From Actinomycetota bacterium (GTDB lineage: Bacteria; Actinomycetota; UBA4738; CALAEC01), in assembly GCA_050693165.1 (NCBI GenBank), contig JBOGVX010000120.1, positions 1 through 51,964 of the forward strand: a stretch of 51,964 nt of DNA, read 5' to 3'. The position numbers and the translations under genes are program-made. Each line of letters begins with the position of its first letter. The stretch's first letter is position 1. Positions 20,281 to 35,439 of the stretch are shown one piece after another. The notes below the pieces were generated by a model. It was not told the origin of the DNA, ran no database searches, and was given only the letters and a program-made list of their open reading frames with translations.

Positions 20281-20666
20281 CGGACCACCCCGAAGCGAGG
20301 GCTGTACCGAACTCGCACCACGCCCTCGATCGCGACGCGCGCGACGGTTCCGAAAGACCGCCCGTCCGTGCTGGCGTCGCTGTTGTCGCCCTCGACCAGG
20401 TACTCGTCCGGGCCTAGCGTTCGGCCGTCAACCACGTCGCCGGGTATGGCCGAGACGCGCTTGACCAGGTCCATCGAGTCCTCGGGGTGACGAAGTACCA
20501 CCACCCTGCCGCGACCGATAGCTCCCGCGCGTGTCGCGATGAGCCAGTCCCCTGGTCTGAGGGTCGGCTCCATGCTCGAGCCGGCGACCTCGACTCGAAA
20601 GGGCCTGAGGAATGCGGCCGCCGCCCCGACGCTTACCAGAATCAGCCAGCGAGTGCGTCCACTCAC
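20277..20666 (-). CDS. sodX: S26-family signal-peptidase-like protease (Ni-SOD maturation protease type)
   Basis: VAGSSMEPTLRPGDWL (catalytic Ser box) and DLVKRV (Lys box). The protein is small (129 aa) and divergent from sodN. Confidence 0.82.
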   Translation of the reverse strand: MSGRTRWLILVSVGAAAAFLRPFRVEVAGSSMEPTLRPGDWLIATRAGAIGRGRVVVLRHPEDSMDLVKRVSAIPGDVVDGRTLGPDEYLVEGDNSDASTDGRSFGTVARVAIEGVVRVRYSPRFGVVR

Positions 20667-20744
20667 CCCGTCAACGTAGCCCCTGACGCGACTCCGTGCG
20701 TTGGTGGTAGCGTGACCGAAGCTACCCCTAACGAAGGAGGAGAC

Positions 20745-21161
20745 ATGCTCAACCTGCTACGTCCTCGCAGAGTCGTGCACGCGCACTGCGACCTGCCATG
20801 TGGTGTGTACGACCCCGCGCAAGCGCGGATCGAGGCCGAGTCCGTCATGGGGATCCAGAAGAAGTACCAGGACGCCGAGAACCAGAAGAAGCCCACCGAG
20901 ACGGCGGACGAGTTCAAGTCACGCGCGCTGTCCATAAAGGAGCAGCGGGCGAACCTGGTCAAGGAGCACCTGTGGGTGCTCTGGACCGACTACTTCAAGC
21001 CCGAGCACCTGGACAACCACCCGGGTCTGCACGAGACGTTCTGGAAGGCGACGAAGCTAGCCGGCGACGCGAAGAAGTCGCAGGACCCGAGCCAGGGGCA
21101 GCAGCTGCTGGACGCGATCGCCGAGATCGACTCGATCTTCCAGGAGACGAAGAAGGGCTAG
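20745..21161 (+). CDS. sodN: nickel-containing superoxide dismutase precursor
   Basis: MLNLLRPRRVVHA is followed by HCDLPCGVYDP, the Ni-hook motif exposed after leader cleavage. The RBS GAAGGAGGAG lies upstream. Confidence 0.95.
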   Translation: MLNLLRPRRVVHAHCDLPCGVYDPAQARIEAESVMGIQKKYQDAENQKKPTETADEFKSRALSIKEQRANLVKEHLWVLWTDYFKPEHLDNHPGLHETFWKATKLAGDAKKSQDPSQGQQLLDAIAEIDSIFQETKKG

Positions 21162-21174
21162 TGGCGACCCGCGC

Positions 21175-21348
21175 TCAGCGGGACCCGCCCTTGCGCCCGA
21201 TCGTGCGGTAGAACTCCGGCCCGTACCGCTCCTTGGTGGTCAGGCCGCCTTTCTTCCCGCCCTTCCTCCCGATCTCCTGGAAGAAGTCGGGCCCATATCG
21301 CTTCTTGGTGGTCAGGCCGCCCTTGCGGCCGGCATCTGCCCTGGTCAT
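21175..21348 (-). CDS. KGG-repeat general stress protein (57 aa)
   Basis: MTRADAGRKGGLTTKKRYGPDFFQEIGRKGGKKGGLTTKERYGPEFYRTIGRKGGSR contains two tandem copies of a KGG-motif repeat. ATG at 21348. Confidence 0.75.
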   Translation of the reverse strand: MTRADAGRKGGLTTKKRYGPDFFQEIGRKGGKKGGLTTKERYGPEFYRTIGRKGGSR

Positions 21349-21481
21349 GCGCGGTTCCGGGTCGGGCAAGTGGGAAACACCCCCTGGTCGTCGAGATGTA
21401 ACCCCTTTCCTTCCCAGGCCACCCGTCGGCCAAACCGCGGAACTCAGGCCGAGGGGCAATGGGGCCGATGAATAGGTACGT

Positions 21482-22585
21482 ATGTCCGCTGCGACTTTCC
21501 TACGCCACATGGTCGAGGCCGGGGCGAGTGACCTTCACCTCAAGGTGGGGCTGCCCCCCACGATCCGGGTGGACGGCGTGCTCGACCAGGCCCCTTTCCC
21601 GCCGATGACGACCGCCGACACCGAGAAAGCCGCCAGGGAGATGCTTTCGGAGGCCAAGGCGGTCGAGTTCAAGGCCACGAACGAGGCCGACGTCGGCTAC
21701 ACACTCCCCGGGGTCGGCCGGTTCAGGGTGAACGTCTTCAGGCAGCGCGGTAACGTCAGCCTCGCCATCCGAAGGGTGCGTTCCGACATCCCGACATACG
21801 AGGAGCTCCACCTGCCCAAGGCCGTCGGCCTCATGGCCGCGGAGCCCCGAGGTCTCATCTTGATCACCGGGCCCACCGGGACCGGGAAGACGACCACGAT
21901 CGCCTCGATGATCGGCTGGATCAACGCGAATCGCCGAGCCCACATCGTGACGATCGAGGATCCCATCGAGATCGTGCACGAGGACATGCTCTCGATCGTG
22001 GACCAGCGGGAGATCGGGCTCGACACCGACTCGTACCAGAGCGCACTGAAGTACATCGTGCGGCAGGACCCCGACGTCATCTTCGTCGGCGAGATCCGCG
22101 ACCCCGAGACGGTCAAGGCGGCCCTTCAGGCGGCCGAGACAGGCCACCTGGTGATCGCGACGCTGCACACGCTCGATGCGACCGAGACGATCAACCGCTG
22201 CATCGACCTGTTCCCCGCCGAGATGCAGCGCCAGGTTCGCGTCTCCCTGGCCGCGAGCCTCCGGGGCGTGATGTCGCAGCGGCTGCTGCCTCGCGCCGAT
22301 GGCAAAGGACGAGTCCCAGCGGTCGAGGTCCTGATCAACACCGGCCGCGTGGCCGAGAGGATCTTGAACCCCGAGCTGACCAACACCATCGTCGACGTGA
22401 TCGGCGACGGCGACTTCTACGGCATGCAACTCTTCGACCAGGCGCTAGTCAAGCTCGTCGCCGACGGGCTCGTCACGGTGGACGCTGCGGCCGACACGGC
22501 TTCCAGCCGCCACGACTTCCTGCTCGCGCTGAAGCAGGCTCAGCTGCTGGACGTTCGCACCGAGCACGAGCACGAGCGCATCTAG
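21482..22585 (+). CDS. pilT: PilT-family type IV pilus retraction ATPase
   Basis: Walker A GPTGTGKTT, DPDVIFVGEIRD (Walker B / Asp box) and GHLVIATLHT (His box). Length 367 aa. Confidence 0.88.
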   Translation: MSAATFLRHMVEAGASDLHLKVGLPPTIRVDGVLDQAPFPPMTTADTEKAAREMLSEAKAVEFKATNEADVGYTLPGVGRFRVNVFRQRGNVSLAIRRVRSDIPTYEELHLPKAVGLMAAEPRGLILITGPTGTGKTTTIASMIGWINANRRAHIVTIEDPIEIVHEDMLSIVDQREIGLDTDSYQSALKYIVRQDPDVIFVGEIRDPETVKAALQAAETGHLVIATLHTLDATETINRCIDLFPAEMQRQVRVSLAASLRGVMSQRLLPRADGKGRVPAVEVLINTGRVAERILNPELTNTIVDVIGDGDFYGMQLFDQALVKLVADGLVTVDAAADTASSRHDFLLALKQAQLLDVRTEHEHERI

Positions 22586-22950
22586 CGCGCCTCCATCTCC
22601 GCGAGCCTTGCCGCCTCCTCGAACGGGTGACCCCTGTACCCCGTGAACACCCAGATCAGCACGTACAGCGGTATGTACAGAGGCCCGAGCCGCTCGTACT
22701 GGCGCACGTGGTGAAGCTCGTGAACCAATAGGGATCCCTGCACGGGGCTGTTCGACAACACGACATGACCGTAGGTGATAGCAGCGCGCCGGAAGAGCGC
22801 GATTAGCCAGATGAAGCCGCGTCTGTCCGCGTCGAAGACGAGGATCCCGTCCTGCGTGCGCGGTCTCTGGAAAGACAACAGTCCGAAGAGGATCCCGAGG
22901 ATCGTGTTCGGTGACGCCCACACGTAGGCGAGAACGCGAAGAAGGGGCAT
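22582..22950 (-). CDS. small membrane protein with HExxH motif, function unknown
   Basis: ATG 22950. The product has hydrophobic segments and LLVHELHHVRQYERLG. Its stop overlaps the pilT stop (CTAG). Confidence 0.55.
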   Translation of the reverse strand: MPLLRVLAYVWASPNTILGILFGLLSFQRPRTQDGILVFDADRRGFIWLIALFRRAAITYGHVVLSNSPVQGSLLVHELHHVRQYERLGPLYIPLYVLIWVFTGYRGHPFEEAARLAEMEAR

Positions 22951-22975
22951 TCGGAGCCTAGGGTATCCTCCAGCG

Positions 22976-24370
22976 GTGGCCCCTCCCGAAGAAGGTTCAC
23001 CCACCGCAGACCTGATCGACGTCCCTCCGCCCGCAGCGGAGCTCGGCCAGCGTTTCGAAAAGGCGGGACACCAGCTGTACCTCGTCGGCGGCGCGGTACG
23101 CGACGCCGTTCTCGGGACCATCGGTGACGAGCTCGACTTCACCACCGATGCGCGACCCCCGCAGATCATCGCGATCCTGCAGGGATGGGCGGAATCCCGC
23201 TATCTGATCGGCATCGAGTACGGCACCGTCGGCGCGCGCAGAGGCGGGTACACCTTTGAGATCACCACGTTCCGCGAGGACGTGTACCGGGAGGAGTCGA
23301 GGAACCCCGTGGTGACGTACGCGAAGGACGTCGAGACCGATCTGTCGCGCCGGGACTTCACGATCAACGCGATGGCGGTGCGTGTCCCCGGCGGCGAGTT
23401 CGTCGATCCCCACCGCGGCCTGCTCGACCTCGGCATGAAGAAGCTCAGGACCCCGCTCGACCCCGACACCTCATTCACCGACGACCCGCTGCGCATGCTC
23501 CGCGCGGCGCGGTTCGTATCGACGCTGGGCCTCGAGCCGGACCCCGAGCTTCTCGAGTCGATCGGACGTCTACGAGACAGGCTCGAGATCATCTCGCCGG
23601 AGCGCATCCGGGACGAGCTGACCAAGCTGCTCCTCGGCGAGCACGTCGACCGGGGGCTCGCGCTGGTGGTCGACACCGGCCTCGCCGAGCAGTTCATACC
23701 GGAGCTCCCGGCGCTGAAGCTCGAGCAGGACCCGGTACACCGCCACAAGGATGTCCTGCACCACACGTTCGCGGTCGTCAAACGGACGGAGCCGAAGCGC
23801 GTCCTTCGTCTGGCGGCGCTCATGCACGACATCGGCAAACCGGCCACGCGCGAGATCACCCCCGAAGGGGTGCAGTTCCACCACCACGAGGTCGTCGGGG
23901 GGCGAATGGCCGAAGAGCGGCTCAGGGCCCTGCGCTATCCCGAGAAGGACGTGCAGGACGTGAAGAATCTGGTCGAGATGCATTTGCGGTTCCACACGTA
24001 CCGCCTCGGCTGGACCGACGGCGCGCTTCGCCGCTACGTGCGCGACGCCGGCCCACTTCTGGACGACCTCAACCAGCTGACCCGGGCCGACTGCACCACC
24101 CAGAACCCGCAGAAGGCCAAGACCCTCACCGCTCTCCAGGACGAGCTCGAGGAGCGGATCGCGCGACTCGCGGAGGACGAGAACCTCGCACGGATCCGCC
24201 CGCCGCTCGACGGTACCCAGGTCATGGAGCATCTCGGCGTGCCACCAGGCCCGCTGGTGGGTGAGGCGCTCGCCCATCTCCTCGAGCTGCGGATGGACCG
24301 GGGACCGATCTCCCAGGAGGAGGCTCTTCGGCTCCTCGACGAGTGGCGGGAGCAAAAGGGCCTCGAGTAG
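22976..24370 (+). CDS. cca: CCA-adding tRNA nucleotidyltransferase with HD domain
   Basis: LYLVGGAVRDAVLG...DFTT, RRDFTINAMA and the HD-domain block RLAALMHDIGKP. GTG start. Confidence 0.9.
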   Translation: MAPPEEGSPTADLIDVPPPAAELGQRFEKAGHQLYLVGGAVRDAVLGTIGDELDFTTDARPPQIIAILQGWAESRYLIGIEYGTVGARRGGYTFEITTFREDVYREESRNPVVTYAKDVETDLSRRDFTINAMAVRVPGGEFVDPHRGLLDLGMKKLRTPLDPDTSFTDDPLRMLRAARFVSTLGLEPDPELLESIGRLRDRLEIISPERIRDELTKLLLGEHVDRGLALVVDTGLAEQFIPELPALKLEQDPVHRHKDVLHHTFAVVKRTEPKRVLRLAALMHDIGKPATREITPEGVQFHHHEVVGGRMAEERLRALRYPEKDVQDVKNLVEMHLRFHTYRLGWTDGALRRYVRDAGPLLDDLNQLTRADCTTQNPQKAKTLTALQDELEERIARLAEDENLARIRPPLDGTQVMEHLGVPPGPLVGEALAHLLELRMDRGPISQEEALRLLDEWREQKGLE

Positions 24371-24379
24371 CCCTGAGCC

Positions 24380-24844
24380 ATGCGGAACAGCGTCGACGTA
24401 CACAACTTCCTCCTGGAGCGACAGGTTCCACACGAGCTCGTCCCGGTGCGAGGACGGTTCCGCTCCGCCGACAACATCGCCGCGGTGCTCGGGCTCGAGC
24501 CCCAACAGGTCGGCAAGGTCGTGATACTCGGGGCGAGCAAGGGCCTGGTGGCGGTGCTGCTTCCCGCGAACAGCGAGCCGGACATGCGGCGGGTCGCGAT
24601 CGCCGCTCCCACGCCGACGCTTCAGGCGCTGTCCTCGGATGAGATCAGCGACGCGACGCAGTACCTCGCCGAGAGCGTCCCGCCGGTCGGGCTTCCCGAG
24701 GGGACGAAGGCGATCATGGATCACGGGCTCGCCGAGCAGGAGATCCTCTACTTCGCGGGTGGCGAGTCCTCGACCCTGCTGAAGATCCGACCCGGTGACC
24801 TGCAGAGCGCGTCTGGTGCCAAGGTCGCGAAGGTTGCCAGATGA
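24380..24844 (+). CDS. YbaK/ProX-type aminoacyl-tRNA editing (deacylase) domain protein
   Basis: 154 aa. The pattern VGKVVILGASKGLVAVLLPANSEPDMRRV...VPPVGLPEGTKAIMD...LYFAGGES fits the YbaK fold. Confidence 0.7.
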   Translation: MRNSVDVHNFLLERQVPHELVPVRGRFRSADNIAAVLGLEPQQVGKVVILGASKGLVAVLLPANSEPDMRRVAIAAPTPTLQALSSDEISDATQYLAESVPPVGLPEGTKAIMDHGLAEQEILYFAGGESSTLLKIRPGDLQSASGAKVAKVAR

Positions 24845-25269
24845 AGACCCAGTACCAGGTCTCCGCCGGGGGCGTGCTTGTCCGCGATTCCGGCGGCGGT
24901 CCGGAGGTGCTTCTCGCGTCGCGGAGGACCCGGCGAGACGAGCTCGTCTGGGGCTTGCCCAAGGGCCTGGTCGAGGATGGCGAGTCGGCGGAGGAGGCGG
25001 CGCTTCGCGAGGTTCGGGAGGAGACCGGCTACAGCGGGGAGATCCGGGAGCCACTCGGCGAGGTCTCGTACTGGTACGTGTGGGATGGCGACCGCGTAAG
25101 GAAGACGGTCCACTTCTTCCTGATGAAGGACACGGGCGAGGAGCCAGGAGAGCGCGACCAGGAGATGGAGGAGGTTCGGTGGTTCGACCTCACCGAGGCG
25201 CAGAGCGTCGCCGGATTCAAGTCCGAGAAGGCGATCCTCAAGAAGGCCACCGAAGCGGTGAGAGCATGA
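24841..25269 (+). CDS. NUDIX hydrolase
   Basis: Nudix box GLPKGLVEDGESAEEAALREVREETGY. ATGA overlap with the upstream gene. Confidence 0.9.
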   Translation: MKTQYQVSAGGVLVRDSGGGPEVLLASRRTRRDELVWGLPKGLVEDGESAEEAALREVREETGYSGEIREPLGEVSYWYVWDGDRVRKTVHFFLMKDTGEEPGERDQEMEEVRWFDLTEAQSVAGFKSEKAILKKATEAVRA

Positions 25270-27290
25270 GGCGAGCCCTCTCTCTCCTGTTCCTGCTGCT
25301 CGCCGCGACTCCCCCGGCGGCGGTCGCTCAGGAGGAGGGCGGCCCGGTGCGCCTCGTCCTGCTGCAGCAGACCCCATCTGCCACACCGACCGAGCCCTTC
25401 CAGATCCGGGTCGGCGCCGTCAACGAGTCACCGGCCGGCTACAGAGACCTGCAGCTGACGGTCGCCGTCTACTCGGCGATCGGGTCTCGCTCGGAGTACG
25501 AGCAGACGCTCACGTCGGGGTCCGTCTCGCCTGTGGCAGCGGCGCCGCGCGCGGTGCGCGGGGCGCTCGAGTCCGGTGACGGGCGCTCCTTCCCTCCGAT
25601 CGAGCTCGGACTGGACGACCTGACGGTCAACGCGCTGTACCCGGTGACCGTTGAGCTCCGCGCCGACGGCGGGGTCACTCCCCTCGCCGTGCTGCGGACA
25701 TCTGTGGTCTTCATAGCGACCCCGCCGGAAGTTCCGCTCAACGTCTCACTCTCGTTCGTCATCGACGAGCCGATCCGCATGCGTCCGGACGGCGTGCTGC
25801 TCGACGACTCTCTGGAACGCTCGCTGGCCCCCGGAGGGAAGGTCGCGAACATCGTCGCGGCTCTCGAGGCAGCACCGGTGCCCGTAACCCTCGCATTCTC
25901 ACCGTTACTGCTCGAGGAGGTAAGGCGGATGGGCGAGGGGTACCGGATACAGGAAGCTGGAGCGATCAGGCAGGTGGCGGCCGGCCAGGCGGGGGCCATC
26001 GCGGCGGCCGAGATGCTCGAGCGCCTCAAGGCTGTGGTGCGCCACGCTGGAACGGAAGTGGTGGCGCTCCCCTACGCCTCTCCGTCCATCCCCGCGCTGG
26101 CCGAGGCCGGCCTCGGGACCGACCTTCGCACGCACATCGATCGCGGGAGGGCCGTGGTTAAGAACGTGCTCGGCATCGAGCCTTCCCAGACCATCTTCCG
26201 TCCGCCGGGGTCGGCCCTGTCCGAAACGTCCCTTGACCTGCTGACCCTCCTGCTCGCGGCGGACGGCCAGACCGAGGCGCTCCTGGTGGACCCGGAGGTC
26301 CTTCAGCCGCCGGTCGGGCTCACGCTCTCCCCGCCGGCAGTCGCAGCGCTTCGCACGTCCGGCGGGGAGCTGCCGGCCATCGCGCCGGATCCGATCCTTG
26401 AGGAGCGCACCGACGCGCTTCCGGCCAACCCGGCGCTCGCGGCGATGCGGACGCTCGGCGAGCTCTCCGCTCTCTACTTCGAGCAGCCGAGCCTGGATCG
26501 TGGCGCGGCCATCGTCTTCTCGGAGGACGAGACGCCCCAGCCGGAGCTGCTGAACACGCTCCTTCGCGGCCTCGTGCCTCGGCCGGGCACATCATGGCTG
26601 CGGCCGATGAGCGCGACACGCGTGCTGTTCGCCGAGACCTCGGAGGAGGATCCACCGCTTCAGGAGCGACTCCTGCAGCAGTCCTCGCGATCGGCTTCGG
26701 TTCCCGACAGCGTCGTTGCGGCGGTCGACCTCGCCGAGGAGACGGTCGGGCGCCTCGAGTCGGTCGAAGCTCCGGCGGATCTGGTGGAGCAGCTCCACCG
26801 CCGGGTTCTTCTGAGCGAGTCCCGGTACCTACTCGGGCGAGAGGACCTCGCGCTGGCGTTCCTCGACTCCGCCACGCGGATCGTGGAGTCGGAGTTCGAG
26901 AAGATCCGCCCGCCCGATGAGAGCACGAAGATCACACTCACGTCCCGTGGTGGAGTGATACCGCTGACGATCCGCAACGACGCCGGCTATCCCGTGCACG
27001 TGCGCGTCGCGCTCCGAGCATCTCGCCTCGAGTTCCTGGAGGGCGCCAGCAGGGAGGTCACGCTCGAGCCACCCGGTGAGGCCTTCTCGTTCCCGGTGCG
27101 CGCACAGACGACGGGTCGCTTCGCCGTTCGCGTCGAGGTGCAGACCCCCGACCGGATCCCGATCGCCTCCTCGACCATCGCGGTCCGGTCGACCGCGTAC
27201 AACAGGGTGGCGCTGATCCTGACGATCGGAGCTGCGGTGTTCCTGGCGCTGTGGTGGGGAAGGAGGTTCCTGCCTCGCCGGAGGGCCTGA
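25266..27290 (+). CDS. large secreted, C-terminally anchored conserved protein (positional equivalent of mycobacterial Rv3909)
   Basis: ATG 25266 (ATGA overlap). The signal peptide is MRRALSLLFLLLAATPPAAVAQ. The C-terminus is VALILTIGAAVFLALWWGRRFLPRRRA. It lies between the NUDIX gene and murJ. Confidence 0.7.
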   Translation: MRRALSLLFLLLAATPPAAVAQEEGGPVRLVLLQQTPSATPTEPFQIRVGAVNESPAGYRDLQLTVAVYSAIGSRSEYEQTLTSGSVSPVAAAPRAVRGALESGDGRSFPPIELGLDDLTVNALYPVTVELRADGGVTPLAVLRTSVVFIATPPEVPLNVSLSFVIDEPIRMRPDGVLLDDSLERSLAPGGKVANIVAALEAAPVPVTLAFSPLLLEEVRRMGEGYRIQEAGAIRQVAAGQAGAIAAAEMLERLKAVVRHAGTEVVALPYASPSIPALAEAGLGTDLRTHIDRGRAVVKNVLGIEPSQTIFRPPGSALSETSLDLLTLLLAADGQTEALLVDPEVLQPPVGLTLSPPAVAALRTSGGELPAIAPDPILEERTDALPANPALAAMRTLGELSALYFEQPSLDRGAAIVFSEDETPQPELLNTLLRGLVPRPGTSWLRPMSATRVLFAETSEEDPPLQERLLQQSSRSASVPDSVVAAVDLAEETVGRLESVEAPADLVEQLHRRVLLSESRYLLGREDLALAFLDSATRIVESEFEKIRPPDESTKITLTSRGGVIPLTIRNDAGYPVHVRVALRASRLEFLEGASREVTLEPPGEAFSFPVRAQTTGRFAVRVEVQTPDRIPIASSTIAVRSTAYNRVALILTIGAAVFLALWWGRRFLPRRRA

Positions 27291-28903
27291 GCTCCGGGGA
27301 TGCACGGCTCGTGCGCGCGACCGCGGGCATGGCGGTCGGCACGACGCTGTCGAGACTCACGGGGTTCCTGAGGGTTGCAGCGATGGCCTTCGCGCTGGGC
27401 GTCGCCGAGACGCGGCTGGCCGACTCCTACAACGTCGCCAACAACATCCCGAACATCGTCTACGAGCTGATACTCGGCGGGATCCTCACCTCGGTATTCG
27501 TGCCGATCTTCGTCCGCCAGCTCACCAAGCGATCCCGCGAAGAGGCGTGGCAGTCGGCTCAGGCAGTCCTCACCGTGACGTTCCTCGTGCTGGCCGTTGT
27601 GACGGTGGTCGGCATCCTGGCCGCGCCGTGGATCGTGCGTCTGTACACGGCGAGGATCCCGGGCGTCGAGCAGCGCGCCGCCGTACAGGAGCTGGCCACG
27701 CTCTTCCTGCGCTTCTTCATGCCGCAGATACTTCTCTACGGGGTCGGCGCCGTGGCCACGGGGCTGCTGAATGCGCACAAGCGGTTCCAGGCGCCGATGT
27801 TCGCGCCGATCCTCAACAACCTGATCGTCATCGCGACCTTCCTGACGTTCGCGTTCATGCCCGGACCGTCCCAACCAGGGCCCGAGACCATCACTTTCGC
27901 GCAGAAGCTCGTGCTCGGCGCCGGCACCACTCTCGGCGTGGTCGGGATGACACTGGCCCTGTGGCCGTCGCTTCGAAAGATCGGGTTCAGATGGCGATGG
28001 CGTCCCGAACTGCGCAACGAGGCCGTGCGCTCGCTCGTGCGGCTGTCGGGGTGGGCCGTGCTGTACGTCGCCCTGAACCAGCTCGGGCTCCTGGTCGTCA
28101 TAGTCCTCGCCGGCGAGGTCACCGGCGGCTACACCGCCTACCAGGCGGCGTTCATCTTCTTCCAGCTCCCGCACGCGATCTTCTCGGTCTCGATCATGAC
28201 CGCGCTGCTCCCGACGCTCTCCGAGAGCTGGATCCGGGAGGACCGCGATGGGTTCCGCTCGAACCTGGCAAGGGGCATACGAGCCTCGGCGTTCGTGGTC
28301 CTGCCCGCCGCCGCGGGCTACCTCGTCCTCGCACGTCCGATCGTTCGACTCCTCCTCGAACACGGCGTTGCCGGGGCAGAGTCCTCCCTGCTCGTCTCGA
28401 AGGTGCTCGTCTATTTCGCGATCGGCCTGTTCTCCTTCTCGGCGTTCATGCTGTTCCTGCGCGCCTTCTTCGCGATGGACGACACTCGCACGCCGGCCCT
28501 CATCAACGTGTTCGCGGTGGGAGTCAACACGGCAGCGAACCTGATCCTCTTCCCGGCGCTCGGCGTGCCGGGCCTGGCGCTCGGCCACGCGATCGCCTAC
28601 ACGTTCGCCGCCACCACTGCCGCTGTGATTTTGAGGCGGCGGATCGGGGGACTCGAGGGTCGCTCGCTGGCGAGAAGCATGTCCAGGATCGTCTTGGCGG
28701 CGGCCGCCACGGGAGGCGCCTCCTGGCTCGCCGTTCACGCGCTGAGCGCCGCGGTGAGCGCGGAAACTTTCGCGGGACAGCTGACCCAAGTCGGGGTTGG
28801 GGTGGGGGTCGGACTGCTAACCTTCGTCCTGGCGGCCCTGGTGTTGAGGATCGAGGAGTTCGACTTGGTGAAGCGGACCCTGTTGGCACGTTCCCGCAAA
28901 TGA
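27251..28903 (+). CDS. murJ: lipid II flippase MurJ/MviN (flippase domain only)
   Basis: MAVGTTLSRLTGFLRVAAMAFALGV...ADSYNVANNIPNIVYELILGG is the MurJ N-terminal signature. The protein is polytopic. The start is uncertain: GTG 27251, GTG 27311 or ATG 27329. Confidence 0.9.
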   Translation: MVGKEVPASPEGLSSGDARLVRATAGMAVGTTLSRLTGFLRVAAMAFALGVAETRLADSYNVANNIPNIVYELILGGILTSVFVPIFVRQLTKRSREEAWQSAQAVLTVTFLVLAVVTVVGILAAPWIVRLYTARIPGVEQRAAVQELATLFLRFFMPQILLYGVGAVATGLLNAHKRFQAPMFAPILNNLIVIATFLTFAFMPGPSQPGPETITFAQKLVLGAGTTLGVVGMTLALWPSLRKIGFRWRWRPELRNEAVRSLVRLSGWAVLYVALNQLGLLVVIVLAGEVTGGYTAYQAAFIFFQLPHAIFSVSIMTALLPTLSESWIREDRDGFRSNLARGIRASAFVVLPAAAGYLVLARPIVRLLLEHGVAGAESSLLVSKVLVYFAIGLFSFSAFMLFLRAFFAMDDTRTPALINVFAVGVNTAANLILFPALGVPGLALGHAIAYTFAATTAAVILRRRIGGLEGRSLARSMSRIVLAAAATGGASWLAVHALSAAVSAETFAGQLTQVGVGVGVGLLTFVLAALVLRIEEFDLVKRTLLARSRK

Positions 28904-29322
28904 CGACTTCCCGCCGCCTCGGCGATCAGCGTGGAGTCGTCGGCATCTCCCTTGTCCGATGGGGGATCGTACTCGTCCTCCTCGGCCTGGTCCTTATCGA
29001 GGGTGGCAGCATCATCTTCACGACGATCGGGCTGCAGAACGCGGCCGACGTGGCCGGGATCGATGCTGCCGACACCTGGGCGAAGACCGGAAACCTCGAC
29101 GCCTCCAGGCAGGCCGCGCTGCTTGCGCTGCGCTCCCGCGATCAGGACGCGGCTCGCATCCCCCGCAACTCCTTCGAGGCCGATGGAGCACCCACGTTCG
29201 AGGTCCGGTTCGAGGTCGTGAAGCAGGCCCGCACCCTGGTCGTTCAGCACATCGGGTTCCTCGAGGATCTCGCCGAAGTCAGCATCGATGTCGAGGCGCG
29301 GCCCATCGAAACCGACGTCTGA
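28900..29322 (+). CDS. small single-pass membrane protein, function unknown (weak TadE-like N-terminus)
   Basis: ATG 28900 overlaps the murJ stop (ATGA). The product begins MTTSRRLGDQRGVVGISLVRWGIVLVLLGLVLIEGGSIIF, followed by a soluble domain of about 100 aa. Confidence 0.6.
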   Translation: MTTSRRLGDQRGVVGISLVRWGIVLVLLGLVLIEGGSIIFTTIGLQNAADVAGIDAADTWAKTGNLDASRQAALLALRSRDQDAARIPRNSFEADGAPTFEVRFEVVKQARTLVVQHIGFLEDLAEVSIDVEARPIETDV

Positions 29323-29357
29323 TCCGGTTGACCAGCGCCATCCGTAGACTTGTCGCG

Positions 29358-30836
29358 GTGGATGCCGAACGACCACATCTGAAGAGTCTTCGTCTGGCCG
29401 ATCGCTACGTCCTGGAGGAGCAGCTTGCCTCAGGGGGCATGGGCTCGCTCTGGATCGCGCGTGACGACCTGCTTGGACGTCCCGTCGCCGTCAAGGTGCT
29501 GCACGAGCACCTCGCTCGAGACCGTGCCCTCCTCGAGCGCTTCCGCTTGGAGGCGGTGTCGGCGGCACGTCTGTCCCACCCGGCAGTGGTTCGAGTCTTC
29601 GACACCGGCGTCGACGAAGGCGCCTGCTACATAGTGATGGAGCTCGTCGACGGATCGACTCTGAGGGAGCTGCTCTCAGACGGGGCTCTTCCGCCCGGCG
29701 AGGCCGCCCGGATCCTGCGCGGCGTGCTTCAGGCGCTCGCCCACGCGCATCGAGAAGGAGTGATCCACGGGGACGTGAAGCCGGGCAACATCCTCGTTGG
29801 ACACGACGGGATGGTGAAGCTCGCCGACTTCGGCATCGCGAAGGCAGCATTCGCCCAGCACGACGCCACGACAACGGGCGACCTGCTCGGAACCTCCCGC
29901 TATCTGTCGCCGGAGCAGGTCGCCGGAGAAGAAGTCGACCACCGCTCGGACCTGTACTCGTCGGGAGTCGTGCTCTATGAGCTGCTGACGGGACGCCCAC
30001 CCTTCGTGGCGGACTCGCACATCGCGACGGCCACGATGCGGCTCACAAAGGACCCCGCTCCGCCCGGCTCGATCCGCCCCGGCATATCCCGGCAACTCGA
30101 ATCCGTGGTGATGCGCTCGCTGGCCCGCGAGCCCGACCAGCGGTTCCAGACCGCCGAGGAGATGAGCTCGGCGCTCGATCACGCAACCCCGGCGGCCACA
30201 CGGGTCAGGGAGGAACCAACCGAAAGGCACCAGCTCGTGGCGCCGCAGCCGAGGCGCTCGATGCTGGGCTCGTGGATGGCGATACCGATCATCCTCGCCG
30301 TGATCGCCGCGCTGATCGTGGGCGGCTTCTTCCTGCTGGAGGGCATCGCTCCGGACGAGCCCGGCCAGGGCGAAGAGAGCACTCTCGTTGCAGCGCCCCT
30401 CGAGATCAATGCCGTCCGCTCGTATGACCCGGAGGGCTCCGGCGTGCTCGGGGAGCACGACGACAATCTCGGTCAAGCCATCGATGGCGACCCCGCTACT
30501 TACTGGTCGACGGAGGGCTACGACCAAGACTTCCCCCTCGTGAAAGCCGGAGTGGGGCTCGTCCTGGATCTCGGGGCCGAGGTTCAGGTCGGACATGTGC
30601 GCATCCAGACAGACCTTCCGGGCTGGGACTTCAACGTCTACGCGGGGGAATCCCCCGACAGTTTCTCCTTAGCCGAGCCACTGATCGCTTCAGAGCAGAC
30701 CGCGCTCGAGTCCGAGATATACGATCTCGAGCCGATAGAGACTCGCTACGTGCTGATCTGGATGACGGGCCTGGTTCAGTCGGATAGATACCGGGCACAG
30801 ATCAATGAGATAGAGCTTCTTTCTCCCGGTGCGTGA
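29358..30836 (+). CDS. Hanks-type Ser/Thr protein kinase, single TM, extracellular discoidin/galactose-binding-like domain
   Basis: LASGGMGSLW (Gly loop), VAVKVL, IHGDVKPGNIL, LADFG and SPEQ. The TM segment is WMAIPIILAVIAALIVGGFFLL. The extracellular part reads AIDGDPATYWSTEGY...LVLDLG...YVLIWMT. Start is GTG 29358 or TTG 29328. Confidence 0.85.
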   Translation: MDAERPHLKSLRLADRYVLEEQLASGGMGSLWIARDDLLGRPVAVKVLHEHLARDRALLERFRLEAVSAARLSHPAVVRVFDTGVDEGACYIVMELVDGSTLRELLSDGALPPGEAARILRGVLQALAHAHREGVIHGDVKPGNILVGHDGMVKLADFGIAKAAFAQHDATTTGDLLGTSRYLSPEQVAGEEVDHRSDLYSSGVVLYELLTGRPPFVADSHIATATMRLTKDPAPPGSIRPGISRQLESVVMRSLAREPDQRFQTAEEMSSALDHATPAATRVREEPTERHQLVAPQPRRSMLGSWMAIPIILAVIAALIVGGFFLLEGIAPDEPGQGEESTLVAAPLEINAVRSYDPEGSGVLGEHDDNLGQAIDGDPATYWSTEGYDQDFPLVKAGVGLVLDLGAEVQVGHVRIQTDLPGWDFNVYAGESPDSFSLAEPLIASEQTALESEIYDLEPIETRYVLIWMTGLVQSDRYRAQINEIELLSPGA

Positions 30837-31401
30837 CGTCCCCGACGACGAGCTGATCCGCAGGCACCTCACGGGTGACCGCGCCGCCTTCGGAGCCCTG
30901 GTCGAACGCCACCAGACGCGCGTGTACAACCTCGCGTATCGGATGCTGGGACGCCCCGAGGACGCCGCCGACGCCACGCAGGACGCCTTCGTCACTGCGA
31001 TGCGGAAGCTCGAGGGTTTCCGAGGTGCCTCCTCGTTCACGACCTGGCTCCATCGCGTCACGGTCAACACGTGCTACGACGCTCTGCGCAAGCGCCAGCG
31101 GGAGATCCCCGTCGAGGAGGAGGAACAGACCGACTCGCCCGCGCCGGGTGACGTGGCCGAGGAATCGGCGACCGCCGTGGACGTGCAGCGAGCCCTGCTC
31201 GAGGTCCCCGAGGAGTTCCGGGCGGTCCTGATCATGCACGACGTCCAGGGATTGCCCTACGAGGCCATCGCCGAAGCGCTCGGCGCGCCGATCGGAACCG
31301 TGAAGTCGCGCCTGCACAGGGGCCGGGTCTCTCTGGCCCGGGCCCTGCGCGGGGAACAACGCGCGGGGTCCCGTGCGTCCAAACAGCGAGGAGCACTGTG
31401 A
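30829..31401 (+). CDS. ECF (group 4) RNA polymerase sigma factor (SigM-like by position)
   Basis: Region 2 (DAADATQDAFVTAMRKL, FTTWLHRVTVNTCYD) and region 4 (EALGAPIGTVKSRLHRGR). GTG 30829 overlaps the kinase stop. Confidence 0.9.
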   Translation: MRDVPDDELIRRHLTGDRAAFGALVERHQTRVYNLAYRMLGRPEDAADATQDAFVTAMRKLEGFRGASSFTTWLHRVTVNTCYDALRKRQREIPVEEEEQTDSPAPGDVAEESATAVDVQRALLEVPEEFRAVLIMHDVQGLPYEAIAEALGAPIGTVKSRLHRGRVSLARALRGEQRAGSRASKQRGAL

Positions 31402-32249
31402 ACGAGCATCCCGAAGAGCTTCTGGCCGAGTACGTCGACGACGCGCTCTCCGCGGGCGAACGAGCTCGCGTGGAGGAGCATCTCTCGACGTGCCAGCAGT
31501 GCCGCGAGGAAGTGGAGCTTTCCACCTCTGCTCTCGCGATCCTGGCGTCGGTGCCCGAGCTCGAGGCCCCGCCCGGAGTCGCGCTCGCGGTGAGGCGCCG
31601 AGAGCGTCAGGCCCCCTCGAGGGTGGTTCGCCTGGTCGCCACCTATGCCGCGGCGGCAGCCCTCGTGGCCGCCGGCGTGGTGGTGCTCGGCAACCTCGGC
31701 CAGGGGGATTCCGCGGCCCCCGGAGGTGGTGGAGACGCGGCCACCGGCGAGCGATCTGAGGCCGAAGGCGGAGGCGGCGGGGTGGGTGGCGAGGACCCGG
31801 CGACGTCCGGGGAGGTGGCTCAGGACCAGTCGGACGGGCCGGCCCCCGCCCTCGCGGCGACGGGCCCGGTGGTCCCCACTTACGAGGAGTCCGACCGCCG
31901 CTACCGGTCGAAAGACCTCGCCCCGCTGGCCCGCAAGCTTCGTGACGATGCGCAGGCTGCGATCGCGGCGGGCCTGTCCCCGACGGCGACGAGCTACTTC
32001 GACGGCTTCGACCCCGCGGCCTTCGGCCCCGAAGTCGAGCAGGCCATCCGATGCGTGCTCAACGAGATCCCTCCGAGCCAGCTCGTGGTGCCGTTCCGGA
32101 TCGAGGCCGCCTCTTTCGAGGGCTCGCCCGCCTACATCGCCGCGTTCCTGCAGGGACCAACTCCTGACGACCCCTACGACCGGATCGTGATCTGGGTCGT
32201 CCACCGGGAGAGCTGCAGCCTCCTCTCCCTTGCCACACAGGTCCTGTAG
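31398..32249 (+). CDS. anti-sigma factor (zf-HC2 type), single TM
   Basis: The N-terminus YVDDALSAGERARVEEHLSTCQQCREEV carries the H-x3-C-x2-C motif. The TM segment is LVATYAAAAALVAAGVVVLG. GTGA overlap with the sigma gene. Confidence 0.8.
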   Translation: MNEHPEELLAEYVDDALSAGERARVEEHLSTCQQCREEVELSTSALAILASVPELEAPPGVALAVRRRERQAPSRVVRLVATYAAAAALVAAGVVVLGNLGQGDSAAPGGGGDAATGERSEAEGGGGGVGGEDPATSGEVAQDQSDGPAPALAATGPVVPTYEESDRRYRSKDLAPLARKLRDDAQAAIAAGLSPTATSYFDGFDPAAFGPEVEQAIRCVLNEIPPSQLVVPFRIEAASFEGSPAYIAAFLQGPTPDDPYDRIVIWVVHRESCSLLSLATQVL

Positions 32250-32297
32250 CCGGCCGGAATACCCTCTCGTTGGAACGGTTGGAGGGCATGCGCGACA

Positions 32298-33233
32298 ATG
32301 ACCGACAACGTGGACGAACGGAACATCGTGATCATCGGCTCGGGCCCGGCGGGGTTCACCGCCGCGCTCTATGCCGCCAGGGCCAACCTCAAGCCGGTCG
32401 TGCTCAAGGGCCTCGAGGCCGGCGGCCAGCTCATGCTGACCACCGAGGTCGAGAACTACCCGGGCTTCCCCGAGGGCATCCTCGGACCCGAGCTGATGGA
32501 GCTCATGGAGAAGCAGGCGGCTCGATTCGACGCGGAGATGCTCCACCAGGCCGCCACCAAGGTCGACTTCTCCTCCGCGCCATTCGGTATCTGGTCGGGT
32601 GACGAGGAGTTCCGCGCCCGCGCCGTGATCATCTCGACCGGCGCCACCGCGCGCATGCTCGGCATCCCCGGCGAGGACCGGCTTCTCGGCCACGGTGTTT
32701 CCACGTGCGCCACGTGCGACGGCTTCTTCTTTCGGGAGCTCGAGCTCGTCGTCGTCGGCGGAGGGGACTCGGCGATGGAGGAAGCGCTGTTCCTCACCAG
32801 GTTCGCCTCCAAGGTGACCGTGGTTCACCGCCGCGGCGAGCTGCGAGCCTCGAAGATCATGCAGCAGCGCGCCAGAGAGAACGAGAAGATCGACTTCATC
32901 TGGGACACGGTCGTCGAGGAGGTGCTCGGCGACAAGACCGTCAGCGGGGTTCGGCTGCGGAACGTGGAGACCGACGAGAAGTCCGACTTCCCGACCAACG
33001 GCATGTTCGTGGCCATCGGTCACACGCCCAACACGGCCGTGTTCGCTGACCAGCTCGAGATGACCGACGGCTACATCACGGTGCGCGAGCCGTCGACCGC
33101 GACGAACGTGGAAGGCGTGTTCGCGGCGGGCGACGTCGTGGACTTCAACTACCGTCAGGCGATCACCGCAGCCGGGATGGGATGCAAGGCGGCCATGGAC
33201 GCCGAGCGGTACCTCGAGGCCCTGGGCCACTGA
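32298..33233 (+). CDS. trxB: thioredoxin-disulfide reductase
   Basis: IIGSGPAGFTAALYAAR (FAD), the redox-active CATCDG, VVGGGDSAMEEA (NADPH) and GVFAAGDV. Confidence 0.95.
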   Translation: MTDNVDERNIVIIGSGPAGFTAALYAARANLKPVVLKGLEAGGQLMLTTEVENYPGFPEGILGPELMELMEKQAARFDAEMLHQAATKVDFSSAPFGIWSGDEEFRARAVIISTGATARMLGIPGEDRLLGHGVSTCATCDGFFFRELELVVVGGGDSAMEEALFLTRFASKVTVVHRRGELRASKIMQQRARENEKIDFIWDTVVEEVLGDKTVSGVRLRNVETDEKSDFPTNGMFVAIGHTPNTAVFADQLEMTDGYITVREPSTATNVEGVFAAGDVVDFNYRQAITAAGMGCKAAMDAERYLEALGH

Positions 33234-33925
33234 AGCCCAGGCTCCTCCTCGCCCTCCTGGTCACGACGCTCGTCTCGCCGCCACACGCGAGCGCTCAGCC
33301 GCCGCAGCTCGTGGCGCCGCCGTCCTACTACAGGCCGGTCGTGGTCGGTGGGTTCACGTTCCCCGTCGCGCGGACGAACTGGCTCTCGGTGATCGAGCAC
33401 GGCGACGACTGGCACGACCCGAGATTCAGGCTGATCGGCGGCGAGTGGCAGCTGGTCGGCGTGCACGAGGGCAACGACATCACCGCCGAGAAGGGAACGC
33501 CGATCCTGTCGGTCACGGCCGGCCACGTGGAGGCCGTCGGATGGACGTTCTACTCGGGCACGCGCGTCGGCGTCCGAGGGGACGACGGCAAGTACTACTT
33601 CTACGCGCACATGTCCCGAATCGCCGGCGGGATTAGCGTGGGCACGCCGGTCGGCCCCGGCACGGTCCTCGGTGCGGTCGGCAACACCGGGTACGGTGAC
33701 CCCGGCCACGAGGACGAGTTCCCTCCCCACCTGCACATCGGCATAGAGGGGCCGAATGGGTGGGAGAACCCGTACCCTTTGGTGCGTAGGCTGTACAGGA
33801 GATCGGTCGCGGTCACGACGCGGCGGGAGGCGGAGCTATCGGCTCTCGGCCGCTCGGGTGACCGGGCCGGCTTCGAGAAGGCAGCCCGGAAGCTCTACGA
33901 GGACCTCTACGCGCGTATGGAATAG
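33182..33925 (+). CDS. M23 (LytM-type) metallopeptidase, secreted
   Basis: HEGNDI (HxxxD), the AVGNTGYG glycine-rich loop and PPHLHIG (HxH). The signal-like segment is LKPRLLLALLVTTLVSPPHASAQ. ATG 33182 is the only canonical upstream start and implies a 52-nt overlap with trxB. Confidence 0.78.
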   Translation: MQGGHGRRAVPRGPGPLKPRLLLALLVTTLVSPPHASAQPPQLVAPPSYYRPVVVGGFTFPVARTNWLSVIEHGDDWHDPRFRLIGGEWQLVGVHEGNDITAEKGTPILSVTAGHVEAVGWTFYSGTRVGVRGDDGKYYFYAHMSRIAGGISVGTPVGPGTVLGAVGNTGYGDPGHEDEFPPHLHIGIEGPNGWENPYPLVRRLYRRSVAVTTRREAELSALGRSGDRAGFEKAARKLYEDLYARME

Positions 33926-33984
33926 GGGTGCTCGCCAGAGGGTTCCTTTGTTGGAGCACGTTGATGCGAAACGGAGGAAATGAG

Positions 33985-34314
33985 ATGGGTGCTGTAAGCG
34001 AAGTCACGGACCAAGAGTTCGAGACCGAGATCCTCAAGTCCGACAAGCCTGTCCTCGTAGACTTCTGGGCCGACTGGTGCGTGCCCTGCCACATGGTCTC
34101 GCCCGTGGTCGAGGAGATCGGCATCGACAAGGCAGAGAAGATGCGCGTGGCCAAGCTCAACATCGACGATAACCCCGACACCGCGCAGCGCTACGGGGTC
34201 ATGAGCATCCCGACTCTGATCCTCTTCGTCGAGGGACAGGAGAAGGCCCGGGTCGTCGGCGCCAAGCCCAAGGAAGCCATCCTCCGGGAGATCCAGGACC
34301 ACATCCCCGCCTAA
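33985..34314 (+). CDS. trxA: thioredoxin (active site WCVPC)
   Basis: MGAVSEVTDQEFETEILKSDKPVLVDFWADWCVPCHMVSP...MSIPTLILF. The RBS ACGGAGGA lies upstream. Confidence 0.92.
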   Translation: MGAVSEVTDQEFETEILKSDKPVLVDFWADWCVPCHMVSPVVEEIGIDKAEKMRVAKLNIDDNPDTAQRYGVMSIPTLILFVEGQEKARVVGAKPKEAILREIQDHIPA

Positions 34315-34344
34315 CCGTTCTCGGTAGGGTCTTACACTTCGCCC

Positions 34345-35439
34345 GTGCAGCTCATCCGCCGTGGCGACCGCGGCCCTCGTGTGCGTGACGTCCAATCTCG
34401 GCTGCTCGGGCTCGGCTTCACGGTCGAGGCCACCGATCTCGAGGGCCACACGTTCGACGAGTCCACCGAGGGCGCGCTGAAGGCGTTCCAGCAGGAGCGC
34501 GGCCTCCTGGTCGACGGCGTTGTGGGCCCGAACACCTGGCACGAGCTGATCGAGGCCGGCTACGCGCTGGGCGACCGCATCCTTTATCTGCGCCGGCCGT
34601 TCACTCGTGGTGACGACGTACGCGCTCTGCAGCGTCGTCTGAACCTGATCGGGTTCGACCCGGGGCGCGAGGACGGGATCCTCGGAGAGCAGACCGGGAA
34701 GGCGATCCTCGACTTCCAGCGCAACGTGGGGCTTCACGCGGACGGCATCGCGGGCGCCACGACGATCCAGGCACTCGACCGGCTGATCGCCGCGCCGGTC
34801 ACTCGCACGGGGCGCACCTCAGTTCGAGAAACGGAGGGGCTGCGTGCGCCCGGCTCCTCTCTCGCGGGCAGGCGGGTGGCCATCGATGCCGGGCACGGAC
34901 CCGACGACCCCGGCTTCATCGGCTCCGGAGGCTCTCGGGAGAACGACGTGACATACGACCTCGCGGACGCACTGAAGGACGAGCTGACCGAGAGAGGCGC
35001 CGCTCCCCTGATCCTGCGCGTGAGGCAGGAGGACCCCGACCAGTCAGAGCGAGCTGCCCGCGCCAACGAGGCCGACGCCGAGGTGCTGGTATCGATCCAC
35101 CTCAACGGCCACGACGACGCCGCCGCCGAGGGCTCCTCCTCCTATTACTTCGGCGCGATCGGGGCGGGCTCGGTCGCGGGGCAGGCTCTCGCCGAGCTGG
35201 TCCAGGACGAGCTGACCGCGGCGCTCGGCCTTCGTGACGGCCGGGCGCATCCGAAGGCGTTCCCGATACTTCGGGAGACGAGGATGACGGCGATCCAGGT
35301 CGAGCCGTGCTTCATCACGAACCCGAAGGAGGAGCTGCTCCTCGGAGAAGAGCCGTTCCGGCGGGAGGTGGCGCGGGCGCTGGCATCCGCGATCGAGCGC
35401 TACTTCGCGGGCGGCTCGGTCGAACAGCCGGGCGGCTAG
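34345..35439 (+). CDS. cwlM: N-acetylmuramoyl-L-alanine amidase-fold protein with two PG-binding domains (CwlM-like)
   Basis: Two PG_binding_1-like repeats (VRDVQSRLLGLGF...DGVVGPNTW and VRALQRRLNLIGF...DGIAGATT), then an Amidase_3 core (VAIDAGHGP..., VLVSIHLN). The position after trx matches mycobacteria. Confidence 0.85.
   Translation: MQLIRRGDRGPRVRDVQSRLLGLGFTVEATDLEGHTFDESTEGALKAFQQERGLLVDGVVGPNTWHELIEAGYALGDRILYLRRPFTRGDDVRALQRRLNLIGFDPGREDGILGEQTGKAILDFQRNVGLHADGIAGATTIQALDRLIAAPVTRTGRTSVRETEGLRAPGSSLAGRRVAIDAGHGPDDPGFIGSGGSRENDVTYDLADALKDELTERGAAPLILRVRQEDPDQSERAARANEADAEVLVSIHLNGHDDAAAEGSSSYYFGAIGAGSVAGQALAELVQDELTAALGLRDGRAHPKAFPILRETRMTAIQVEPCFITNPKEELLLGEEPFRREVARALASAIERYFAGGSVEQPGG

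Follow-up and report, generated by a model that had tools for sequence, protein, structure and literature searches.

Background

The pseudokinase tail of MviN is a textbook case of a bacterial pseudokinase that controls peptidoglycan synthesis. In Mycobacterium tuberculosis, MviN/MurJ (Rv3910) carries a pseudokinase (ActPs3) and a carbohydrate-binding tail and is regulated by PknB and FhaA, a checkpoint of mycobacteria (Gee et al. 2012, summarised in PMC10166564 and PMC12599244). In MviN of this type PknB phosphorylates a Thr of the juxtamembrane tail, to which FhaA binds. ActPs3 has lost the Lys of VAIK, the Asp of HRD and the Asp of DFG, its activation loop is shortened (PMC12599244, 10.1101/2025.01.12.632604), and the strings VALT and LSIDHPSR are given as motifs of the M. 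tuberculosis protein (PMC12599244). The extension has been held to be confined to mycolata, or organisms with arabinogalactan (PMC10166564). Here we describe a stretch of 51,964 nucleotides from an Actinomycetota bacterium (assembly GCA_050693165.1, contig JBOGVX010000120.1; the whole stretch is called the window below), in which murJ, a gene for a small membrane protein and a gene for a receptor kinase follow one another as three separate genes. Judged by sequence and position, the kinase, which combines a kinase domain, a transmembrane (TM) helix and a domain of the CBM32 fold, is the free-standing counterpart of the MurJ-fused pseudokinase tail of mycobacterial-type MviN.

Mycobacteria have made both the family and the idea of its regulatory role familiar. 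The literature searched gave no description of the split arrangement with its separate adjacent gene, of an active kinase form or of a murJ-linked small family, and no MurJ accessory factor in Actinomycetota was found in it. In contrast to the view that the module belongs to mycolata only, it occurs as a separate gene beside murJ across many Actinomycetota.

Relationship of the kinase gene to MviN

For comparison we used a 1184-aa MurJ fusion that contains both VALT and LSIDHPSR (genome G105, locus L014; G, L and f are our codes for genomes, loci and families). In BLASTP the kinase gives a single collinear alignment with this protein, residues 31-476 against 724-1168 (E 3e-11), which spans the kinase fold, the TM helix and the ectodomain. 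In the other direction, the MviN tail ranks the kinase gene first in the host genome (E 9e-15, covering 24-469 of 485 residues), followed by a PknB-like kinase that is matched in its N-lobe only (E 3.5e-7); the kinase gene and the C-terminal half of the 1184-aa MviN are reciprocal best matches. In addition, tblastn reaches the C-terminus of L015 (E 7e-8), and the ectodomain of the kinase has the motifs FDPxG, DGDPxTxWxTxxY, KxGVGLxL and YxLVWxT in common with L014 and L015.

The gene order points in the same direction. In the fused locus L014 the order is DUF6049, fused MviN, extracytoplasmic function (ECF) sigma factor and TrxB; L023, a split locus of a family with large genomes, has MurJ, a kinase-like gene, an ECF sigma factor and zf-HC2. 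A preliminary description of the window, made from the sequence alone, had placed the genes in the MviN slot between an Rv3909-like gene and an ECF sigma gene and had taken the kinase gene as homologous to the C-terminal region of MviN. The slot is borne out by DUF6049, which lies upstream here as in L014, and the homology by the collinear alignment and the reciprocal best match.

When compared with M. tuberculosis MviN, the window thus has the same locus, from DUF6049 to the ECF sigma factor and with trxB further downstream, the same MurJ core and the same order of kinase fold, single TM helix and homologous extracytoplasmic beta-sandwich domain. MviN, however, is one polypeptide, whereas here the genes are separate and murJ stops at 28903. 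MviN has VALT, LSIDHPSR and no DFG, whereas the Lys, the Glu, the Asp of HxD, the Asn, DFG and S/APE are intact here; and nothing in MviN corresponds to the conserved small membrane protein gene that separates murJ from the kinase gene. The three genes and the parts of the kinase are as follows.

27251..28903, + strand: murJ, lipid II flippase without C-terminal extension, likely start GTG 27308 (PF03023, TIGR01695)
28900..29322, + strand: gene for a 140-aa single-pass (N-in, C-out) pilin-like/TadE-like membrane protein
29328..30836, + strand: receptor Ser/Thr kinase gene, start TTG 29328 or GTG 29358 (PF00069, E 6e-47)
29406..30161, + strand: kinase domain, cytoplasmic (Pkinase hidden Markov model (HMM) match in the whole-genome search; motifs)
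30273..30338, + strand: TM segment of the kinase, WMAIPIILAVIAALIVGGFFLL (from the translation; aligns with the TM segment of fused MviN)
30393..30833, + strand: extracytoplasmic CBM32/discoidin-fold domain of the kinase gene (structure model, Foldseek)

Two genomes with fused MviN contain a second, unfused ectodomain kinase (L085, G270:C1:3258500-3262000; L086, G281:C16:37200-40600), whose kinase domain is about 36% identical to that of the window; this paralogue bears on any orthology argument.

Three separate genes

The open reading frame (ORF) 27251-28903 encodes 550 aa and matches PF03023 with E 1e-96 and TIGR01695 with 340.6 bits, above the curated equivalog cut-off of 235.6; it is the only MurJ match in the host genome. 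The likelier start of murJ is GTG 27308 and not 27251, given that the alignment begins at residue 20 both for the TIGR01695 model and for the more distant relatives. This GTG falls 17 nt past the stop of DUF6049 (27288-27290), and no start codon lies at the customary spacing from the sequence AAGGAGG (27260-27266).

The stop of murJ (TGA, 28901-28903) overlaps the ATG of the small gene (28900-28902) in an ATGA junction, which together with the three ORFs and the 140-aa single-pass product had been noted before and is present as described. The small gene ends at 29322, 5 nt before the kinase start if this is TTG 29328 and 35 nt before it if this is GTG 29358. The kinase lies in a third frame, and its TGA (30834-30836) overlaps GTG 30829 of the sigma factor gene by 8 nt. 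The longest ORF of the kinase, from ATG 28959, runs into the small gene, and this ATG is not the real start.

Order and the three differing frames of MurJ, small protein and kinase recur by tblastn in about 30 related genomes. In relatives with the three-gene order MurJ is 55-79% identical, and the order extends to the further families f7, f8, f9, f40 and f5. Of 34 distinct loci, 21 have an overlap of 4 nt between murJ stop and small-gene start, and three others have one of 1 nt. As read from these comparisons, the three-gene arrangement is more than chance. In four loci of 'uncultured Acidimicrobiales' metagenome-assembled genomes (MAGs; L057-L059 and L061), MurJ itself is spread over two or three frames, a pattern that resembles indel errors of long-read assembly more than a biological state.

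Catalytic state of the kinase

All Hanks catalytic positions are present in the kinase, which shows GGMGS, VAVK, the Glu of helix alphaC, HGDVKPGN, DFG and SPE. It lies outside the ActPs3 definition in that VAVK, HGD with the following Asn, DFG and SPE are retained, and judged by these motifs it looks active and not like a pseudokinase. The HRD motif reads HGD (29766-29774) in the host only, and HRD is found in its closest relatives (L026, L027, L038 and others). In our motif table, all catalytic motifs are also found in f1, f2, f7, f8 and f9 and in some copies that do not adjoin murJ. At least one motif is lost in f5, f14, f16, f18, f40, f44, f27 and f54, in Streptosporangiaceae, Pseudonocardiaceae and Pseudokineococcus and in the fused f41. 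VALT and DHP strings of the MviN type are already present in the Pseudonocardiaceae protein, although it is encoded by a separate gene.

The best solved relative of the kinase is M. tuberculosis PknB (PDB 1MRU, E 1.5e-71). PknB/PknA-type Hanks receptor kinases are likewise single-pass receptor kinases with an extracellular sensor; the kinase of the window differs from them by the lack of PASTA repeats, by its CBM32-fold sensor and by HGD in place of HRD. In agreement with the first of these differences, the PASTA kinase model NF033483 scores 366 bits against a cut-off of 450 and covers model positions 4-273 of 563 only.

The ectodomain

The preliminary description had called the ectodomain sugar-binding and discoidin-like. 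On the level of sequence the resemblance is marginal. Pfam matches stay below the gathering score (PF00754, 22.5 bits against 28.2; PF22633, 18.4 against 27.8), and a sequence search of the PDB with the ectodomain alone gave nothing significant, the CBM32 module of AlyQ appearing at E 0.57. The AlphaFold2 (AF2) model, calculated from 17 sequences, is confident (predicted local distance difference test (pLDDT) 93, predicted template-modelling score (pTM) 0.88). The top matches of this model in a Foldseek search of the PDB are all CBM32 (E 2e-8 to 1e-5), with 165 hits at E<=1e-3 and AlyQ CBM32 as the best (PDB 7D29, E 2e-8, template-modelling scores 0.70/0.76). The predicted galactose-binding-domain-like beta-sandwich fold supports the sugar-binding label, and the domain is homologous to the MviN ectodomain as well. 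It resembles CBM32/F5/8 type C modules in predicted fold, beta-sandwich and size. Instead of being joined to a glycoside hydrolase or lyase, the domain here sits on a membrane kinase, and its ligand binding is putative.

The ectodomain profile has one match in the host genome. Searched alone against 1.8 billion representative proteins, the ectodomain has 2917 relatives, and the full-length relatives among the top matches are typically 450-600 aa long with the domain at the C-terminus.

The small membrane protein

A conserved (D/E)ERG marks the basic N-terminus of the small protein; a TM helix ending in (I/V)(E/D)(G/A)G and an outside part of about 100 aa follow. The AF2 model (pLDDT 83) is pilin-like, with an N-terminal helix of 60 residues, one further helix and a small sheet; Foldseek gave no match to this model in the PDB below E 0.03. 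The protein is similar to TadE/TadG-like pseudopilins (PF13400, PF07811 and the Rv3654c-type TIGR03816) in its small size, in the ERG followed by a hydrophobic helix ending in (I/V)E(G/F)G and, in the model, in the long N-terminal helix packed on a small sheet. It differs from them in three respects. The HMM hits are below the cut-offs (PF13400, 16.9 bits against 22.3; TIGR03816, 23.1 against 51; no hit of PF07811). The Glu at position +5 that is typical of prepilin peptidase substrates is absent, as 34 family members have S, A, L or the like, and never E, at +5 after the conserved ERG; and the gene follows murJ and is not part of a tad locus. Its database relatives are metagenomic and named 'hypothetical protein' or, automatically, 'TadG'.

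Homologs are present in 35 of 41 related genomes, and the host has a single copy at the thresholds used. For a wider view we used a survey sample of 301 genomes spread over the phylum Actinomycetota, in which the labels 'mycobacterial-type' (f41) and 'Streptomyces-like' (f27) were inferred, e.g. from motifs and protein length. The small-protein profile matches 122 of the 301 genomes. In detail, it was found in 16 of 17 genomes of f5, 20 of 21 of f9, 13 of 14 of f18, all 11 of f31 and 7 of 9 of f16, and in none of the nine Streptomyces-like (f27) or the eight mycobacterial-type (f41) genomes. Where a place of MurJ is listed for a strong match, the small gene sits 126-567 nt past the end of the MurJ model match in 45 of 51 cases. 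In 26 sampled genomes the pair of murJ and small gene has no kinase behind it, and because this placement persists without the kinase, the small gene tracks murJ more closely than it tracks the kinase gene.

The small protein thus comes from a family without a name, encoded behind murJ in a large part of the Actinomycetota whether or not the kinase is present, and on the strength of this gene order it is more likely a partner of MurJ than of the kinase. The earlier proposal of a small inserted gene encoding a candidate partner therefore stands in part only: the candidate partner remains, for MurJ rather than for the kinase, and the local insert has to be given up in view of a family that usually lies directly after murJ in these 122 genomes.

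Two ORFs of f14 between murJ and kinase (L020, L022) were considered as versions of the small gene and rejected, as they are Arg/Pro-rich, lack a TM helix and have no match to the small-protein HMM; they are probably not genes. In one f14 genome (L021, G257:C169:15500-21800), an ORF of 371-418 aa lies between murJ and a degenerate kinase; it has a signal-peptide-like start, a coiled-coil-like sequence and no Pfam match.

Distribution of split and fused forms

MurJ was found in 293 and the ectodomain profile in 154 of the 301 genomes. In 44 of the 68 matches that could be placed, the ectodomain lies within 5 kb downstream of MurJ. A single open frame with both MurJ and ectodomain (1198-1977 aa) occurs only in family f41, genera g96 and g103, and the split, adjacent arrangement is common, with Streptosporangiaceae, Pseudonocardiaceae and Pseudokineococcus as named examples; 'Acidimicrobiales' MAGs have MurJ alone. 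The survey of fused and split states that the preliminary description had suggested therefore finds fusion in one family, and the split form is the ordinary state outside this family and no rarity. Long frames around MurJ in G031, G285 and G329 (1177-1253 aa) were rejected as fusions and represent chance read-through into the upstream gene at contig ends.

A MurJ tree of 73 rows, calculated with a quick search and midpoint-rooted, unites the fused proteins in a single clade (support 99). Their sister is the split Pseudonocardiaceae locus (100), and a larger clade of split pseudokinase lineages (100) encloses the two. Because the fused clade nests inside split-state lineages on this tree, we take the fusion as derived; it probably arose once. 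The reading of the locus as a whole, with the kinase as the free-standing counterpart of the MviN tail, the split arrangement as the general and older state and the fusion coming later in one lineage, is in our opinion likely. In f54, the murJ and the pseudokinase-ectodomain gene of L081 (G196:C1:1734700-1740300) are separated by two stops 12 nt apart, and in this state a fusion is one small deletion away.

Alternative explanations

The simplest objection is that the three ORFs are one gene broken by errors of a MAG, and the genome is indeed a fragmented one (2.58 Mb in 266 contigs, 93% complete). This is next to impossible, as the three frames and the junction overlap repeat across independent assemblies, the ORF in the middle has a TM helix of its own and a domain that is modelled with confidence, and the small-protein family is kept down to an HMM E-value of 1e-54. 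Because the ORFs are conserved as separate genes, in the same frames, in many genomes, we follow the preliminary description in regarding them as three genes. If the kinase were a common receptor kinase of the PknB family, placed beside murJ by chance and without relationship to the MviN tail, this would account for the proximity of its kinase domain to PknB/PknA among solved structures, for the absence of MviN pseudokinase chains from the top 60 structure-sequence matches and for the occurrence of such an ectodomain in genes remote from murJ in several families. It would not account for an alignment to MviN that stays collinear over kinase, TM helix and ectodomain, for the kinase gene being the first choice of the MviN tail and the only gene with such an ectodomain in the host genome, or for its place in the DUF6049/sigma slot that MviN also occupies. 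Moreover, graded intermediates, namely split pseudokinases with MviN-type VALT/DHP (L054), bridge both forms, and a coincidental neighbour is therefore very improbable. Slightly more improbable still is secondary fission, i.e. descent from a fused MviN that was split into separate genes afterwards. Gene fissions do occur, and in L081 murJ and the kinase-like gene share one frame with only the two nearby stops between them, so the two states are mutationally close. The fused proteins, however, are a single clade nested among split lineages, at least ten family codes have the split form against one with the fusion, and the conserved, independently folded gene between murJ and kinase would not come out of a simple fission; in addition, the kinase here is catalytically intact by its motifs and all fused forms seen are degenerate. 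The preliminary description had left the choice between an unfused ancestral state and a secondary fission, and the MurJ tree fits the former and not the latter.

The small protein might also be chiefly a partner of the kinase and its CBM32 ectodomain, as a co-sensor, and not of MurJ. An ectodomain gene does follow 0.9-2.3 kb downstream in 52 of the 99 strongest small-gene matches, and f15 keeps a small-kinase pair without murJ. Against this stand the 26 genomes with murJ and small gene but without a kinase-ectodomain gene behind them, family f31 with the small gene in all and the ectodomain in none of its 11 genomes, the tight stop/start overlap, which is with murJ, and L024, which has murJ and kinase without the small gene. 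We therefore consider this alternative rather unlikely, and prefer a link of the small protein to MurJ. Several observations weigh against the view of the locus given here as a whole. The association of murJ and kinase is not obligatory across the sampled loci, and 24 of the 68 placeable ectodomain genes are not near murJ, a number that includes second copies and matches on other contigs. Besides L024, L025 shows murJ, small gene and sigma factor without the kinase, and L087 (f15) shows DUF6049, small gene and kinase without murJ between. The MurJ tree comes from a quick search and is rooted at the midpoint only, and the split Pseudonocardiaceae state is known from a single MAG. A glycine takes the place of the HRD arginine in this kinase, whose putative activity is read from its motifs. 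The case for a functional tie between MurJ and the other two proteins is one of gene order and coupling. The kinase of L087 (G129:C7:199300-204200) looks active, and the same genomes have a second ectodomain kinase elsewhere (L074).

Proposed mechanism

The arrangement suggests a sensory system in which the CBM32 ectodomain would read cell-wall glycan outside the membrane, and the cytoplasmic kinase would then phosphorylate itself or a partner and so tune the export of lipid II by MurJ. The signal might reach MurJ directly or via a forkhead-associated (FHA) protein, e.g. the FhaA encoded elsewhere in the genome. The system could represent an active-kinase forerunner of the mycobacterial PknB/MviN-pseudokinase/FhaA checkpoint. 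The small protein, with a predicted cytoplasmic N-terminus, one TM helix and an outside alpha/beta domain, would be made in step with MurJ and might act as an accessory subunit of MurJ and not as a kinase-specific partner.

Taken together, the small protein would be a hitherto unrecognised subunit of lipid II export, made one-to-one with MurJ in about 40% of the sampled genomes, the CBM32 kinase a still-active glycan-sensing ancestor of the MviN checkpoint that controls MurJ by phosphorylation, and the mycobacterial system would have arisen through loss of catalysis, loss of the small subunit and fusion. We offer this combined scenario tentatively, as a possibility to which we would give well below even chances.

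In some deep, uncultured lineages the module appears to have kept its catalytic motifs; in many it decayed to a pseudokinase, and in one it was fused to MurJ. This offers an evolutionary route and a natural, putatively 'active' version in which sensing by the module and its phosphorylation targets could be studied. The small family, coupled to murJ in about two-fifths of the sampled genomes, is a candidate for a MurJ accessory factor.

Neighbouring genes and further observations

Three more genes complete the locus.

25266..27290, + strand: DUF6049 (Rv3909-type) secreted/membrane protein gene (PF19516, E 6e-15), opens the block
30829..31401, + strand: ECF sigma factor gene, SigM position (Sigma70_r2/r4_2)
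31398..32249, + strand: zf-HC2 anti-sigma factor gene (PF13490, E 7e-10), 4-nt overlap with the sigma gene

These six same-strand genes overlap or nearly abut and fill 25266-32249; DUF6049, murJ, small membrane protein, receptor kinase, ECF sigma factor and anti-sigma factor are a conserved actinobacterial cell-envelope gene block. As stops and starts overlap, the genes are probably co-translated. A scan of 22500-35000 for promoters and terminators gave nothing above the shuffled expectation. DUF6049 most likely starts at ATG 25266, as suggested by the signal-peptide-like MRRALSLLFLLL. Between this start and the stop of the NUDIX gene in front of it (24841-25269) there is a 4-nt overlap, and the coupled block may therefore begin further upstream.

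Elsewhere in the host genome, a PknA/PknB-like pair and a gene with an FhaA_N domain are found on contig 99. The two adjacent Hanks kinases lie about 5 kb from the FhaA_N gene (18902-26301), which resembles the actinobacterial division/wall cluster, and a fourth kinase of the host is encoded on contig 115.

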